DNA of 24,000 nucleotides from Paenibacillus cellulosilyticus (GCF_003182255.1 NZ_QGTQ01000016.1:87836-111835), one strand, 5' to 3'. Counted from the first letter of the stretch, positions 13,389 to 18,275 are shown. Notes: a model not told the origin generated them from the letters alone. Program-made: numbers and translations.

Positions 13389-14192
13389 CTACTGAGGGAG
13401 GACAAGCCCCCACACCTCTTGCAAAGCCTCAATGAACAAGCGATCCAGCCGTTCATCGATAGTCGCATCCGCCGACTTCAATGCATGTGCACGCTTCTCC
13501 AATGAGTCCAGCTCCTTGGCGATATACGCGTGAATCGCCTCTTGACGCGGCTCGTAGTCGAGCTCTTCGCCTGCCTTCTTCCGCTCGAGCAGCTGCTGCA
13601 CCTCGTTCCACAGCGCATCTTCTCTTGGGAGCAGCCGCTCGACCAGCTCATCGAACTTTATCGGCGGCATCTCGCCGAACTGCTCAATCCATTCGCAGGC
13701 GAGAATCGGACGCAGAACGTAGAAGTACTTCTTGATCTTCACCTGATCGCCTTGCAGGTACGTCCGGAAGTTGCCGCGCGCCATATGCAAGTAATGGAAC
13801 ATGCATGCCTTCGGCGAGAAAGCTTGCGATGACAGCGCACGAAGCTGGTCTGCCGTGCGGTATGGCTCGGCGTAACGGATTGGCGATTGCAGCCATTCAA
13901 GCAGCGGCGGATTCGATTTGCGATACAAGCCAAGTGCCTTCCGCAAATCCCAACCGCTAATGTCGAGCTGATCGCTGATCGGACGCTCGATGACGTCGCG
14001 TTTGTCCTGAATCGATAAATACCACTCCGGCCGCCGAACGTAGAGGAACCTCACATCATAGTCGCTGTCCTGCGACGGGAAGCCCCATGCGCGGCTGCCG
14101 GATTCGCATGCATATAGGATGCGAACCTGCTCCTCCTGCTCGATCCGCTTCAATTGTTCCGTTATCTCATTCCGTATCGCGTCTACTGTCAT
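13389..14192 (-). CDS. Pol-beta-superfamily nucleotidyltransferase (PF10127/RlaP-like, YcgL-like)
   Basis: 267-aa ORF with the NTase motif ACESGSRAWGFPSQDSDYDVRFLY (G-S ... D-x-D) and the family-typical helical C-terminal region. RBS GGAGGGAC. The start overlaps the last 26 nt of the upstream TROVE gene. Confidence 0.85.
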   Translation of the reverse strand: MTVDAIRNEITEQLKRIEQEEQVRILYACESGSRAWGFPSQDSDYDVRFLYVRRPEWYLSIQDKRDVIERPISDQLDISGWDLRKALGLYRKSNPPLLEWLQSPIRYAEPYRTADQLRALSSQAFSPKACMFHYLHMARGNFRTYLQGDQVKIKKYFYVLRPILACEWIEQFGEMPPIKFDELVERLLPREDALWNEVQQLLERKKAGEELDYEPRQEAIHAYIAKELDSLEKRAHALKSADATIDERLDRLFIEALQEVWGLVLPQ

Positions 14193-15708
14193 CCCGTGTC
14201 CCTCCTGCCTCTAGGTCGATCGCTTCGATCCGCTCCACCATCGAGCCATAACCTTTAGTCGCCTGAGCGATATAACGGAGAACCGTATCGCTCCAGCCGT
14301 AAATATAGAACGTGTTCGCATCCTGCGGCGGCACCATCGCGCTGCGATACGGCGCAATGTCGATCACGAACGCTTTGACATTCGGGTTCACCTTCGCCCG
14401 ATACTTCGCCAATGCGTCATAGAATGGACTACCGCTGTTCTGCTGCTCGTCGGTAATAATGATGATCTGGTCCACGCGCTGCCGCTCCGCGAGCAGCTTC
14501 CGCACAGGCGCTCCTGTATCGGTGCCGCCTCGTGCACGTATCCATTCCGCCTGCGTTAAAATGCTTTCATGACGTGACGGCCTCGCGTCCTCTACAGCCG
14601 TATCGAACAGCCAAAACAGCGAGTTCCCTGCGGTTTTCTTATATAACGCAAGCGCGAATACAGAGCCGATCTGCAAATATTGTCCTTCCATCGAGCCCGA
14701 TATATCGAGAAAAATAGCCGTTCGGCCCTCCAAGTCAGGCAAATTCTTGAACGTATACTCGACCGCGCTGCTCAATGCGCTGCGAACAGCATCGTTCCTA
14801 ACTTGCCGATAGGCGGTCGCGAAGCGGAACGGCAAAATGCGCGACTTCGTCAGCGCACGCGGATCCGTCAGTCGATCAACAACACGGTCGAGGCAGTAGC
14901 GATCCTGCAGCACACCCGCACGATCCAGCGCATTCAAGTTGCGAAGCAGCGCGAAGGTCGGCATTTGCTCCATGAGAACTTCCCATACGAGCTTCGTCGG
15001 CTTGATGGCACCCGTCACGATCTCGTGCGGCAGCCGGCCTGCTTCGATCCAGTAGATCTGCTCGATTTCCGTTGTCGCCTTCTTCAAATACTCCAGCGCC
15101 TCTACCTGCGGAATAAGCGACAAATTCGCCTCTTGGCCGCGCAAATAGCGGAACAATGCCTGCTGCTTCAGGTCGGCTGGCTTCGGATGCGCCGTCGCAA
15201 TTGCGTCGCCAAGGCTGAAGCCCCGGCCGCGTCCGTTGTATTTGATCGCCCAATACTCGGAGACGCCTGCAAGGAATCGATTGACCTGGCGCTTCACCGC
15301 ACGACCGCCCTGTCCCCGTCCCATCCCGCTCACAATCGTCAGGAAGTCCGATAGGTCCGAAGGGATTCGCACCACTTGCATGAAAATTTTGCTGAACAAA
15401 TCCGGGCGACATACCGACAGCACCGCCAAGCCGAACAACGGCTGCAGCCGCATGTGCCCTTCATTGCGTGCGTAGACCAGCGCCTTCGCCATAAACTGCG
15501 GATTATGCTCTGCCATCTCGCAGTGCAACGCCTCTGCTTCTTGCAGCAGCTCCTGCTGGTCAGCGTAGAACGTATTGCCCATCGTATTCGTTACGAGCGT
15601 CTGCACGTATTGCTCTTCTGCCGAGCGGATGTAGGCTGGATAGCTCTCACGGTTCGTCGTGGTCGGATTCATTCTCATATTGGCGAACAATTTCTTAGCG
15701 ATGCTCAT
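14167..15708 (-). CDS. rsr: Ro60 orthologue (Rsr): TROVE domain plus C-terminal vWA domain
   Basis: 513-aa ORF. The N-terminal region is typical of the TROVE HEAT-repeat ring (YVQTLVTNTMGNTFYADQQELL, ALVYARNEGHMRLQPLFGLAVL). The C-terminal vWA has a MIDAS motif (AIFLDISGSMEG ... GGTDTG ... IIIITDEQ). RBS AAGGGGG. Confidence 0.9.
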   Translation of the reverse strand: MSIAKKLFANMRMNPTTTNRESYPAYIRSAEEQYVQTLVTNTMGNTFYADQQELLQEAEALHCEMAEHNPQFMAKALVYARNEGHMRLQPLFGLAVLSVCRPDLFSKIFMQVVRIPSDLSDFLTIVSGMGRGQGGRAVKRQVNRFLAGVSEYWAIKYNGRGRGFSLGDAIATAHPKPADLKQQALFRYLRGQEANLSLIPQVEALEYLKKATTEIEQIYWIEAGRLPHEIVTGAIKPTKLVWEVLMEQMPTFALLRNLNALDRAGVLQDRYCLDRVVDRLTDPRALTKSRILPFRFATAYRQVRNDAVRSALSSAVEYTFKNLPDLEGRTAIFLDISGSMEGQYLQIGSVFALALYKKTAGNSLFWLFDTAVEDARPSRHESILTQAEWIRARGGTDTGAPVRKLLAERQRVDQIIIITDEQQNSGSPFYDALAKYRAKVNPNVKAFVIDIAPYRSAMVPPQDANTFYIYGWSDTVLRYIAQATKGYGSMVERIEAIDLEAGGTRDDSRRDTE

Positions 15709-15860: not shown

Positions 15861-16001
15861 ACAATCGTTGAGGAAAATGGCGGAAAGGCACAAGCTGCTC
15901 TACCAACTGAGCTACTCTGCCTTGCGGCAAAGGTTGGACTCGAACCAACGACAAGCCGATCTACAGTCGAAGTAACCCTTCCTAGCGCCTCAACGATCTG
16001 T
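15861..16001 (-). ncRNA. YrlA-like Y RNA with a circularly permuted tRNA-like domain
   Basis: Read on the minus strand. A 10-bp perfect basal stem AUCGUUGAGG (complement of 15988-15997) pairs with CCUCAACGAU (complement of 15864-15873). Inside are the internal loop CGCUA / GCCAUUUU and the stem GGAAGG / CCUUUCC. The apical module is T arm GUUGG-UUCGAGU-CCAAC (15933-15949), a 7-bp acceptor-like stem CUUUGCC / GGCAGAG closed by a GCAA tetraloop (15915-15932), UA, and D arm GCUC-AGUUGGUA-GAGC (15897-15912). It lies directly upstream of rsr on the same strand. Confidence 0.7.
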
Positions 16002-16120
16002 GCGGCCTCCGCTTTACAGCCTCGGCTTCACAACCTGATTTTCACCGAAATCCACCCCTGCGAACAGGGCAAAAGTATGGCGAAGAATAAAAAGTTTCCA
16101 TTTTCCCCAGTTGACGGGCT

Positions 16121-16129
16121 TGTTACAAT
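16121..16129 (+). promoter_or_regulatory. Candidate extended -10 promoter for the WYL operon
   Basis: TGTTACAAT (TGn + TACAAT) lies 46 nt upstream of the GTG at 16175. There is no good -35 at 17-nt spacing; a TTGACG is present only 7 nt upstream. It overlaps the dyad TTGT-N-ACAA (16120-16128). Confidence 0.3.
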
Positions 16130-16174
16130 GGAGCCATTACCCTTGTGATCGGACAAGATGAGGAGGAATGGACA

Positions 16175-17500
16175 GTGGCTCGAGAAAGCTTTGACAAAGA
16201 GGTGCAGCTGCTGCGGCTGCTCGCGCTCGCAGGCGGTGCATATAACCGGCAGCAGTTCGCGGCGCGGCTGGGCATCTCCGTACATACCTACGACAAAACG
16301 ATGCGCTACCTGAAGGAGATGCAAAGCTCGCTCAAGCAGCCGCTGTCCCCCGAGCAGGAGACCGAACTGTCAGACGGGCTTCGCTACAACTACTACGAAT
16401 CGGCCGACCCGCTGCTGTTATTCCTCTTCCGCGCCAAGTCGCTGAAGGAGTCGGAGAGCGTCCGGCTGTCCACGATATTAACTGTGCTGCAGGATCAGTC
16501 ACTGACCGCAAAAGAGCTGCTCGACTGCTGCAGCGAGACGATGTCTGCGGACTATCCAAGCCCTGACGAGAAGACGATCCGTGGCGATCTCAAATATCTT
16601 GAGGAGGTCGGCGTTATCGTCCGTACCTCAGACAGCCGCCCTTTCCGCTACACCGCAGCTATCGGACTGATTAATGAGCTGTCGGATGACGAGCTGATTG
16701 ATCTCTATGATTACGTCGATGTGATGGCGAATACGCAGGTTCCGTCTGTACAAGGCTACTTGCTTCGCGACACGCTGAAGAAGGCTTTGCGCAAGCGCGG
16801 CTTCGATCCATCGGCAGCCGAGACGCATCTGTACAAGTACCACTACCACTCGCGCATTCTTGACGAGGCGCATCTACATACGATTCACCGTGCGATTCGG
16901 GAGCGGCGACGGATTGATTTTGTATACCATGCACCTCGGAAGGGGAAAAACTACGCAGCTAAGAACACGAATCCACTGTTCGAACGCGAGGAGCAAAGTC
17001 AAACGCAGCCCCTCCTCCCGCTTCGTGTTATCTACGATCATCAATATGGACGCTGGTACCTCATCGGCCATACGCAGCGGAACGCGATTGCGAAATTCCG
17101 GATGGAAGGCATTACGCAGATCGAGGAAGGCGAGGTGGTTTCGGAGGAAGAGTTCAATCGGCACTTGAACACGGTTGAGCGTCAGATGGAGCGAAGCTGG
17201 GTTGTGGATACGCTGCGAACGATTAAGGTTGTGGCGAGATTTTTCAATCCGGAGCGACCTGGATCGAACTTCATTCGGGAACGTGTGGAGGCGCAGGGCC
17301 AATGGGGTTCGATCACGGAGGAATCCGACGAGTCTTTCCTCTATACGATTATGGTCAATGGCATCTACGAGATTAAGCCGTGGCTGCGGAGCTTCGGTTC
17401 CAGCTGTGAGGTGCTTGAGCCCGCATGGCTGCGCAAGGAGTTCATTGCGGAGTGGAAGGAGATTCAGGCCCATTATGAACCCGTTCGAAAAAATATTTAA
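16175..17500 (+). CDS. WYL-domain transcriptional regulator (HTH - second wHTH-like region - WYL - C-terminal WCX-like domain), PafB/PafC-like
   Basis: N-terminal HTH (YNRQQFAARLGISVHTYDKTMRYLKEM) and a second wHTH-like segment (LTAKELLDCC ... IRGDLKYLEEVGVIVRT). WYL signature LRVIYDHQYGRWYLIGHTQRNAIAKFRMEGI, plus a C-terminal extension domain. I prefer the GTG start at 16175 (AGGAGG at 16161-16166, 8-nt spacing). The ORF-track GTG at 16145 is an in-frame alternative. Confidence 0.85.
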   Translation: MARESFDKEVQLLRLLALAGGAYNRQQFAARLGISVHTYDKTMRYLKEMQSSLKQPLSPEQETELSDGLRYNYYESADPLLLFLFRAKSLKESESVRLSTILTVLQDQSLTAKELLDCCSETMSADYPSPDEKTIRGDLKYLEEVGVIVRTSDSRPFRYTAAIGLINELSDDELIDLYDYVDVMANTQVPSVQGYLLRDTLKKALRKRGFDPSAAETHLYKYHYHSRILDEAHLHTIHRAIRERRRIDFVYHAPRKGKNYAAKNTNPLFEREEQSQTQPLLPLRVIYDHQYGRWYLIGHTQRNAIAKFRMEGITQIEEGEVVSEEEFNRHLNTVERQMERSWVVDTLRTIKVVARFFNPERPGSNFIRERVEAQGQWGSITEESDESFLYTIMVNGIYEIKPWLRSFGSSCEVLEPAWLRKEFIAEWKEIQAHYEPVRKNI

Positions 17501-18275
17501 CTACCAAATGCTGTCGCGGCTCGACGAGTCGAACGCATTCGCCTTGACTACGCAGGAGCGCGCATGGCTGAAGATGCTGCTGTCTCACCAATCAGCGGAA
17601 AATGCCTTTACCTCGGATACGCTCGGCAAGCTGCGCGGACTGCTGGCGGACGAAGCCGCAGCCGACATTCGCGACATCATTATCGAGAAAGCGAAGAGCC
17701 GGGAGAAGCATGTGTACCACCCGATGCTGCGCTCGCTCCGCCGCATCATTGCGCAAGGCTTCGGCAGCTATATTACGTATCGGCTCAAGCATGGCGGCAT
17801 GCGGAATCAATTCGGCCTTCCGCTGAAGCTCGAATACAGCATGGTGAAACGGGAGTGGTATCTGCTCTGGTACAGCCCGCGAAGCCGCATGCTGATGGCG
17901 ACGAAGCTGGACAATCTCATCGCAGCTGACGCGGTCGAGCTGCACGCCGATCGTGCAGCATCGCTTCACCGTCGTGCGTCCGAGCTGCTCCACAATCGCA
18001 AGCAGCAAGCGGTTATTGAAGTCGTTCGCATGTATAACGAAGAGCTGTCGCGCATCCTTTATGCGTTCTCGTGCTTTGACAAGACGGTCAGCTATGACGA
18101 ACAGGCCGATCTGTATCATATCCACGTCACATATCCTGCCGACGAAGGCGAATATTTGCTGTCCAAAATCCGTTTTCTCGGCCTCCGAGTACGCGTTGCA
18201 GAAGGCAACTACCTGAAGCGGCGGATGTGGGAGTCCTCATCGAAGGCCATTGCGCGGTATGGAATAGGGGAATAA
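17475..18275 (+). CDS. WYL-domain protein without a recognisable N-terminal HTH (partner subunit, PafC-like)
   Basis: The in-frame ATG at 17475 (MNPFEKIFNYQ) overlaps the upstream gene's end by 26 nt. WYL signature ITYRLKHGGMRNQFGLPLKLEYSMVKREWYLLWYSPRS, plus a C-terminal WCX-like region (YHIHVTYPADEGEYLLSKIRFLGLRVRV). The first 100 codons of the ORF-track frame (from 17175) run inside the upstream gene and look non-coding (Arg/Ser-rich). Confidence 0.8.
   Translation: MNPFEKIFNYQMLSRLDESNAFALTTQERAWLKMLLSHQSAENAFTSDTLGKLRGLLADEAAADIRDIIIEKAKSREKHVYHPMLRSLRRIIAQGFGSYITYRLKHGGMRNQFGLPLKLEYSMVKREWYLLWYSPRSRMLMATKLDNLIAADAVELHADRAASLHRRASELLHNRKQQAVIEVVRMYNEELSRILYAFSCFDKTVSYDEQADLYHIHVTYPADEGEYLLSKIRFLGLRVRVAEGNYLKRRMWESSSKAIARYGIGE

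Follow-up and report, generated by a model that had tools for sequence, protein, structure and literature searches.

What do two overlapping genes with WYL motifs do in Paenibacillus cellulosilyticus, and do their products work together? We address this question in a stretch of 24,000 nucleotides (nt) from this species (GCF_003182255.1 NZ_QGTQ01000016.1:87836-111835; hereafter the window, i.e. the whole stretch at its full length), in which the genes that we call WYL1 (16175-17500, plus strand) and WYL2 (17475-18275, plus strand) follow each other directly. The original prediction, made from the sequence alone, likened the pair to the PafB/PafC heterodimer and proposed that only one subunit is equipped to bind DNA. 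We find that the genomic setting of the pair connects it with RNA repair instead of DNA repair, as well as with one specific promoter box, and we consider it probable that WYL1 and WYL2 are the two subunits of one asymmetric, PafBC-like activator of the WYL class that controls an RNA-repair regulon.

Calls of open reading frames (ORFs) confirm both genes and their motifs (GRWYLIGH in the first protein, KREWYLLWY in the second) as well as the expectation that the second start lies 26 nt inside the first gene. Specifically, WYL2 begins at ATG 17475 and the stop codon of WYL1 ends at 17500, which leaves an out-of-frame overlap of 26 nt (17475-17500, plus strand). The genes overlap in 19 of 20 related loci, by 14, 26, 32, or 53 nt and with a constant relative frame, and WYL2 has its own ribosome-binding site (RBS), AAGGAG (17456-17461, plus strand), which is encoded inside the conserved Trp-Lys-Glu (WKE) codons of WYL1 and stands 13 nt ahead of the WYL2 ATG wherever the start of that gene could be placed, i.e. 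in 19 loci. Because nearly all loci overlap in the same frame and keep this internal RBS, the arrangement reads as a conserved device for coupled translation and not as a product of chance.

The two genes also occur together. Both are present in 74 of 121 Paenibacillaceae genomes, while WYL2 is found alone in 1 genome and WYL1 alone in none, and they are adjacent in every one of the 20 Paenibacillaceae loci fetched. A phylum-wide genome search extends the pairing to other Bacillota families, where, in 8 of the 11 loci fetched, a WYL1-like gene immediately precedes a WYL2-like one, and a ninth has the reverse order. Moreover, both proteins can be found in a single chain: a protein of 790 residues (P0346) shows an end-to-end alignment to WYL1 across its residues 14-422 (E = 1e-35), while its residues 548-769 fit the WYL2 profile, and a second fusion (P0384) is built in the same way. 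These fusions are the best available support from sequence for WYL1 and WYL2 acting together and, along with the co-occurrence and the overlap, they indicate that the two behave as one unit. Given the fusions and the translational coupling, we infer that the two proteins form a heteromer.

Two further contexts of the pair are seen outside the Paenibacillaceae. In one genome of another Bacillota family (L070:5738-8008, minus strand), a WYL2-like module and RtcB share a single frame of 756 residues directly after a WYL1-like gene, with WCX at residues 300-335 and RtcB from ~340 to 753. In a low-GC Bacillota genome (L071:4228-11089, plus strand), a type III CRISPR-Cas operon encloses a WYL1-like/WYL2-like pair, which has Csx1 (CARF-HEPN) on one side and Cas6-Cas10 on the other.

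The first gene encodes a regulator of 441 residues in which a helix-turn-helix (HTH), a winged helix-turn-helix (wHTH), a helical linker, and the domains WYL and WCX follow each other. The length was correctly anticipated, but not the start: position 16145 is merely where the open frame on the plus strand has its first in-frame GTG, and we place the start at GTG 16175, because GAGGAGG (16160-16166) lies 8 nt upstream of it and the resulting N-terminus, MARESFDKE, is invariant among 29 aligned homologues. Two HTH or winged-helix regions had been expected ahead of the WYL domain, and two are found. The first, HTH1 (residues 10-48; 16202-16318, plus strand), is an additional N-terminal HTH and the most conserved stretch of WYL1, with F28, A29, L32, G33, I34, S35, H37, T38, D40, K41, and T42 invariant in the 29 homologues. 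All 9 of the Paenibacillaceae orthologues compared have consistent sub-threshold matches to HTH_11, Mga, HTH_23, and HTH_20 at these residues, with one match above its curated cut-off (Mga, 23.6 vs 21.1 bits). The second, wHTH2 (residues ~92-161; 16448-16657, plus strand), is predicted to be a canonical winged helix of the YafY/PafBC type, with three helices and two strands in the AlphaFold model (predicted local distance difference test, pLDDT, 67-89), weak matches to HTH_DeoR and HTH_11 in Pfam, and additional resemblance to the winged helices of BlaI/MecI, SmtB, and Fur in Foldseek.

The C-terminal half of WYL1 is recognized directly by Pfam. The WYL domain (residues 233-317; 16871-17125, plus strand), which contains GRWYLIGH, matches PF13280 (E = 2.8e-9, 37.3 bits) and the WCX domain (residues 349-430; 17219-17464, plus strand) matches PF25583 (E = 1.5e-13, 51.3 bits), against curated cut-offs of 21.8 and 23.9 bits, respectively. 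The model of the whole protein is modest (pLDDT 64.5) and has low confidence in the first 90 residues, including HTH1. Compared with the PDB, it is closest to full-length PafBC and DriD (E ~1e-12), with the repressor BrxR also matched (1e-5). Fold comparison alone gave these relatives; profile searches of PDB sequences with the WYL1 family returned no significant match.

The second gene encodes 266 residues that comprise a short N-terminal stub, a helical linker, and predicted WYL and WCX domains, without an HTH. Its proposed start at 17475 is borne out by the N-terminus MNPFEKIFNYQ, which shows little or no variation among 31 homologues. The original prediction had expected WYL and WCX domains in both proteins, and a Pfam search recovers them above the cut-offs in WYL1; WYL2 alone has no Pfam match to WYL, WCX, or HTH, and carries the two domains at the level of family and fold only. 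Specifically, 20 of the 31 family members have weak matches to WYL (PF13280, best 1.4e-4) and 1 of 31 has a weak match to WCX (PF25583), while relatives of WYL2 show PF25583 matches below the cut-off (21.7-22.2 bits). Profile-profile comparison aligns WYL2 with WYL1 co-linearly over WYL and WCX (E = 0.001, at a probability of just 21%), and comparing the sub-alignments of the two WYL regions gives a weak signal (E = 3.6e-4). The corresponding comparison of the two WCX regions is not significant, and that of N-terminal pieces (WYL2 residues 1-85 against HTH1, wHTH2, and the linker of WYL1, and HTH1 against wHTH2) is uninformative (E = 0.11-0.38). Profile searches of PDB sequences with the WYL2 family likewise produced no significant match.

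The fold of WYL2 is predicted with a mean pLDDT of 79.7, mostly above 90 across residues 90-250, and the top PDB matches of this model are DriD, PafBC, CapW, and BrxR (E = 6e-9 to 1e-3); PDB 6OAW, annotated as a "CRISPR Cas-related protein," is a weak fold match (E ~2e-4). The model places strands of a predicted WYL beta-barrel at residues 97-154 (17763-17936, plus strand; block pLDDT 77-93), a stretch that contains KREWYLLWY and to which the weak PF13280 matches of the family also point. A predicted WCX-like domain follows at residues 176-261 (18000-18257, plus strand) and matches the C-domain of DriD with a target-normalised TM-score of 0.58-0.61.

How WYL2 came to lack an HTH is suggested by its longer relatives. 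In a search of 1.84 billion representative proteins, residues 22-264 of WYL2 match residues ~80-330 of many proteins of 320-345 residues, and the alignment reveals that these share the same M-x-L-F-x-E start and then carry an N-terminal domain of 60-80 residues that is absent from WYL2. Because its profile aligns to this part of longer proteins that share its start, WYL2 is a truncated form of a longer protein, with the N-terminal domain lost and the linker, WYL, and WCX retained. This missing domain and the absence of an HTH match agree with the view that the second protein has no recognisable DNA-binding domain. Judged by models and matches combined, both proteins belong to the fold class of wHTH-WYL-WCX regulators, WYL1 with HTH, WYL, and WCX, and WYL2 without the HTH and with WYL and WCX at the fold level.

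It had also been suggested that one of the WYL domains is a dedicated ligand sensor, an idea for which we find no support. In WYL1, R293, Y295, and R309 of this domain are invariant and K307 is nearly so, while in WYL2 K125 is invariant, R126 and Y129 are conserved in at least 90% of the 31 homologues, and position 144 holds K or R. The tyrosine of the motif and the neighbouring basic residues are thus kept in both proteins, and because of this we single out neither domain as the sensor. These residues are comparable, by motif position and not by structural alignment, with those through which DriD contacts single-stranded DNA (ssDNA), i.e. Arg189, Tyr192, Arg204, and Arg207 (PMC10853764).

Given a paired regulator, we wondered which genes it might control. 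In the window, the WYL pair is divergent from an operon that consists of a Y RNA, rsr, and rlaP, and upstream of WYL1 lies a non-palindromic box of 23 base pairs (bp) on the minus strand (16061-16083), which is a candidate binding site of the pair. Its consensus, read toward the repair genes, is TCGYMATACTTYYRCCMTGTTCG; the motif is nearly invariant over the 23 bp and can, weakly, be read as two CGYMAT-like half-sites that stand 11 bp apart in direct orientation. The box is present upstream of WYL1 in 19 of 20 related Paenibacillaceae loci as well as in the window, and in 18 of these 19 loci the gene beyond it encodes Rsr, RlaP, Band-7, or RtcB, some of these loci having Hen1 and Pnkp farther along in the downstream direction. 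Over the 20 loci, the divergent neighbour varies between Rsr-RlaP, RlaP-Hen1-Pnkp, RlaP-unknown-RtcB, and an SPFH/Band-7 protein.

The box is also found away from the pair. We searched genomes with a pattern of 21 nt (window match 16062-16082) that allows up to one mismatch, using the reversed pattern as a control. The window's genome has three copies, compared with one for the control, and each of the three directly heads an RNA-repair unit—i.e. Y RNA/rsr/rlaP, tRNA-like RNA/Band-7, and rtcB, the latter with the box 51 nt before the gene. Across the 121 Paenibacillaceae genomes, we find 187 matches vs 19 for the control, and the box is present in 73 of 75 pair-positive genomes and in 3 of the 46 others, counts that are descriptive, given the lack of independence among related genomes. 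The same short type of RtcB occurs without any box in four genomes that lack the pair, and for this reason the box seems to follow the pair and not rtcB. The genes found downstream of 47 box copies encode Rsr, RlaP, RtcB, Band-7, Hen1, Pnkp, DUF6847, and two unknown families of ~528 and ~705 residues.

Several other identities of the box were considered and rejected. It does not have the TGGCAC-N5-TTGC spacing of a sigma-54 promoter, and, read on the opposite strand as a promoter of the extracytoplasmic function type (GAAC-N15-CGA), it would point away from rtcB and run antisense to the gene upstream in the rtcB locus. It is not part of a noncoding RNA, as it also precedes an rtcB mRNA with a short leader, and a hairpin that the window's copy can form is absent from most other sites.

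Aligning 47 sites on the box reveals a fixed promoter geometry. A hexamer of the form N-A-N-N-A-T stands 18 nt past the box at all sites, and none of the 47 deviates at its A, A, or T. Upstream of the hexamer, a G at -14 (44 of 47) and a T at -17 (39 of 47) are spaced as in the TRTGn extended -10 of Bacillus, and these 47 box promoters show no -35 hexamer. In the window, the extended -10 of the Y RNA-rsr-rlaP unit reads TcgGtGAAAAT (16038-16048, minus strand), with GAAAAT as the -10 hexamer (16043-16038, minus strand) and a predicted transcription start near 16031. Relative to this start, the box spans ~-52 to -30 and has its centre near -41. Class II activators act from this region, where they replace the -35 contact. 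The WYL operon appears to have a promoter of its own, with an extended -10, TGTTACAAT (16121-16129, plus strand), whose TGnTAnAAT pattern is conserved in many orthologous upstream regions.

The mechanism that we favour joins these elements as follows. Translational coupling would supply WYL1 and WYL2 in a fixed proportion, and, if DriD and PafBC are a guide, the two would probably pair by way of the linker and the WCX domain of each. WYL1 would contribute all the modules that contact DNA and polymerase (HTH1 and wHTH2) in addition to its own WYL and WCX, while WYL2 would add a second linker-WYL-WCX unit without an HTH. The complex would sit on the 23-bp box ~41 bp upstream of the transcription start with WYL1 as the box-binding chain, and the asymmetry of the box fits a factor that has its HTH modules on one chain only. 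From the box, the complex would activate RNA-repair units whose promoters have an extended -10 and no -35; in this genome, these would be the Y RNAs-rsr-rlaP unit next door, the tRNA-like RNA with SPFH/Band-7, and rtcB, with Hen1-Pnkp and several unknown proteins as additional members in relatives. Activation is favoured over repression by the position of the box and by the closest folds of WYL1, DriD and PafBC, which are activators.

The WYL domains of this complex would probably sense a nucleic acid that arises from RNA damage—e.g. single-stranded or broken RNA, or tRNA fragments—and for the identity of this ligand we offer a guess. A signal derived from RNA cleavage is suggested by the pair in the type III CRISPR-Cas locus and by the WYL2-like/RtcB fusion, and that such a signal is common to these systems is plausible, as the pair recurs beside RtcB, Band-7, and type III CRISPR-Cas in other Bacillota.

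A number of points weigh against this reading. One is that the box holds ATACTT, itself a possible -10, in which case the box and the promoter core would overlap, and the pair would act in the way of CapW and BrxR, as a repressor that a nucleic-acid signal releases from DNA. The invariant ATACTT has the A at position 2 and the T at position 6 that a -10 calls for, WYL repressors that leave DNA upon binding ssDNA are known (PMC11662680, PMC9122601), and CapW and BrxR are among the fold matches. We nevertheless rate this layout lower and think it rather unlikely, because ATACTT and all its flanks are fixed at every base, as expected for a site bound by protein, while the element 18 nt downstream varies as -10 hexamers do—i.e. 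it shows the extended -10 pattern, with only A, A, T and the upstream T..G fixed (39 to 47 of 47). The better fold matches, moreover, are activators.

A second point is the WYL2-like/RtcB fusion, which hints that WYL2 may act on an enzyme and not on DNA. WYL2 could then be an RNA-binding accessory of the repair machinery, similar to the WYL1 accessory of Cas13d, with a WYL1 homodimer alone as the regulator. The lack of an HTH in WYL2 and this single 756-residue frame would suit such a role, and an HTH-less WYL protein that binds single-stranded RNA (ssRNA) and stimulates an RNase is known (PMC6547453). Yet there are direct fusions of WYL2-like modules to WYL1-like proteins as well, 19 of 20 loci have the overlap together with the internal RBS, no WYL1 without WYL2 is found in the genomes searched, and a symmetric WYL1 homodimer fits a non-palindromic box poorly, all of which makes this role quite improbable in our view. 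The fusion does keep open that WYL2 may contact RtcB directly.

The remaining points concern the models, the linkage, and the effector. The WYL1 model is modest, and HTH1 is supported mostly by sub-threshold matches. The box and the pair could both merely travel with RNA-repair genes, which the four box-less, pair-negative genomes with RtcB speak against, although these are few and relatedness makes the genomes dependent on each other. Finally, the effectors reported for DriD, PafBC, and CapW are ssDNA, and one WYL factor of Lactiplantibacillus responds to cyclic di-GMP (PMC10853764, PMC11662680, PMC11880434).

The HTH-less state of WYL2 admits another explanation, in which it would be a dominant-negative or anti-activator paralogue whose heterodimers with WYL1 are deficient in DNA binding and keep WYL1 inactive until a signal arrives. 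WYL2 retains the linker and WCX parts expected to serve in dimerisation, has lost the HTH, and is co-translated with WYL1, as this idea would have it. By the same logic, single-chain WYL1-WYL2 fusions would be permanently self-inhibited, and the two HTH modules of WYL1 mean that one WYL1 and one WYL2 make up the full complement of a canonical dimer; we hold this explanation to be very improbable.

The favoured activator can be drawn more specifically, as a split activator in which one HTH of WYL1 binds the box and the other binds region 4 of sigma-A and so replaces the -35, while WYL2 serves as the sensor of RNA damage and may dock on, or be fused to, RtcB. We put forward this more specific version tentatively, as a possibility that is worth stating rather than one we expect to hold in full. 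If it is true, transcription of the whole RNA-repair regulon would be a direct readout of how much RNA is broken. Gram-positive bacteria would then have an equivalent of RtcR that is assembled from other components, and this equivalent would be a WYL regulator whose effector is RNA, a kind of which we found no example in the literature searched.

Comparison with known regulators places the pair nearest to PafBC. The original prediction of a PafB/PafC logic holds for the fold class, for the paired unit, and for a single HTH-bearing subunit; it did not take in the link of the pair to RNA repair. PafBC of Mycobacterium and Arthrobacter (PDB 6SJ9, 9FND) also consists of two paralogous WYL-WCX subunits that are encoded side by side, and it also recognizes a non-palindromic element that lies upstream of the -10 and replaces the -35, as we predict for the pair and its box. 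The PafBC element is located nearer to the -10 (~-26) than the WYL box, which is centred near -41. The sequence of the box presumably differs from that of RecA-NDp, the element through which PafBC controls DNA-repair genes. PafBC also requires polymerase for binding. Natural single-chain fusions are a further shared trait, as in the PafB-PafC fusion of Arthrobacter (PMC6789036). In PafBC, the wHTH of PafB alone touches DNA, while that of PafC binds region 4 of sigma (PMC10853764), and PafBC is among the top fold matches of both WYL1 and WYL2 (PMC6789036, PMC10853764).

By contrast, each PafBC subunit has the order HTH-WYL-WCX with one wHTH, whereas WYL1 has two HTH modules and WYL2 has none, and in fold alignments the WYL proteins share just 11-18% identity with PafBC. 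PafBC controls a regulon of DNA repair, and its genes show linkage to the Pup-proteasome locus, whereas the WYL pair has a predicted RNA-repair regulon and belongs to a Firmicute; no proteasome genes are present among the ORFs examined around the pair. Because the HTH layout, the low identity, the regulon, and the genomic linkage all differ, the pair works most like PafBC but is not PafBC.

DriD of Caulobacter crescentus (PDB 8TP8, 7TZV, 9PFQ) is the other close relative. It has the same order as WYL1, i.e. wHTH, helical bundle, WYL, and WCX, it acts as an activator once its WYL domain has bound a nucleic-acid effector, and for the C-terminal halves of WYL1 and WYL2 it is the match with the highest TM-scores (0.58-0.70, target-normalised). 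Unlike what we propose for the WYL pair, DriD is homodimeric, its site is palindromic, and the signal that it detects is ssDNA, as part of the response to DNA damage (PMC10853764).

CapW and BrxR, two WYL repressors from phage-defence islands, fall into the same wHTH-WYL-WCX fold class as the pair, and their setting has a parallel in other Bacillota, where the pair is also located in defence loci, including the type III CRISPR-Cas locus. They differ from the pair in being homodimeric repressors that bind palindromic operators and are released by ssDNA (PMC11662680, PMC9122601). RspWYL1, the WYL1 accessory of type VI-D CRISPR-Cas, resembles WYL2 in that it has no wHTH of the transcription-factor type; it binds ssRNA and serves a system that targets RNA (PMC6547453, PMC5935466). 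Unlike WYL2, RspWYL1 is not paired with a wHTH-WYL partner, and we found no relation between the two proteins.

To our knowledge, RtcR is the sole regulator of RNA repair that has been studied. RtcR of Salmonella and E. coli has the role that we propose for the WYL pair, that of a dedicated switch of an RNA-repair operon (rsr-yrlBA-rtcBA in Salmonella) that answers damaged tRNA (PMC7790460, PMC10159003). It is unrelated in family, as it combines CARF, AAA+, and HTH domains and acts on sigma-54 promoters, whereas the promoters that the WYL pair would act on have an extended -10 of the housekeeping-sigma type. Consistent with this difference, neither WYL1 nor WYL2 has a Pfam match to a CARF or AAA+ domain, and inspection of the sequences upstream of the target genes reveals no -24/-12 element of the sigma-54 type.

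The repair genes that have lacked a known control outside the enterobacteria are RtcB, Pnkp-Hen1, Ro60 with its Y RNAs, and the putative SPFH/Band-7 tRNA-like RNA systems. For these, the present locus offers a two-gene regulator, a 23-bp box at a defined promoter position, and a small regulon (three units here) that comes with proteins of unknown function. In the literature that we searched as full text, no paper deals with the control of Firmicute RNA-repair genes by a WYL regulator, and none describes such a pair experimentally. If the favoured reading is true, the WYL family extends from the control of DNA damage and phage defence to that of RNA damage, with a new subunit layout in which both HTH modules of a dimer lie in one chain and none in the other.

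The divergent operon of the window begins with a YrlA-type Y RNA (15864-15994, minus strand), which matches RF02553 over the full length of the model (51.3 bits, E = 1.3e-10) and is conserved in 8 related loci. With a gathering score of 69, this match appears at relaxed Rfam thresholds only; at the gathering threshold, Rfam finds nothing in the window, and ARAGORN finds no tRNA there. The next gene, rsr (14167-15708, minus strand), encodes a Ro60 orthologue with TROVE and vWA domains (PF05731, E = 3.8e-20; PF25045, E = 4e-8), which scores 97.9 bits with the NCBIfam Rsr model, under its equivalog cut-off. It is followed by rlaP (13389-14192, minus strand), which encodes an RNA-ligase-associated Pol-beta nucleotidyltransferase (PF10127, E = 7.8e-101). 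The overlap of rsr and rlaP (14167-14192) is likewise 26 nt and out of frame, equal in length to that of WYL1 and WYL2. The modules that stand as divergent neighbours in the 20 related loci are reportedly listed in the RNA-repair survey of Burroughs and Aravind of 2016. This survey is cited for RlaP and WYL in PMC7824862 and for RlaP in the preprint 10.64898/2025.12.29.696909.

Two of the protein families encoded past box copies in relatives have no Pfam match. One, of ~705 residues and a putative member of the RNA-repair regulon, follows 160-350 nt past a box copy in at least seven Paenibacillaceae loci (L050:5250-7367, plus strand; L055:2660-4792, minus strand; L023, L056, L058, L060, and L063), while none is found after any of the three box copies in the window's genome. 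The other, of ~528 residues, is encoded in box-driven operons, with RlaP or Band-7 on one side and RtcB on the other (L025:10038-11621, plus strand; L026:10889-12478, plus strand; L028 and L057). Proteins with DUF6847 (PF20935, E = 1e-51 to 1e-54) are encoded directly after box copies (L064:4473-4970, minus strand; L053:6744-7202, plus strand) and are possible members of the regulon.

The Band-7 unit of the window's genome (contig C50; L044:5990-7636) consists of a box copy, ~500 nt of noncoding sequence with tRNA-like stretches, which include GGTTCAATTCCCC and TGGTAGAGCAC, and then the SPFH/Band-7 gene. The arrangement looks like what we take to be the Band-7 tRNA-like RNA system predicted in 2016. 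In another genome of the same genus (L051; G075 contig C7, 1-13500), three cassettes of box, tRNA-like leader, and Band-7 stand in tandem within 9 kb. A further locus (L053; G096, 2512881-2524562) has three box copies within 2 kb, along with a WYL2 fragment of 80 residues, DUF6847, and an RtcB gene interrupted by a stop codon, and looks like a second, decayed copy of the system.

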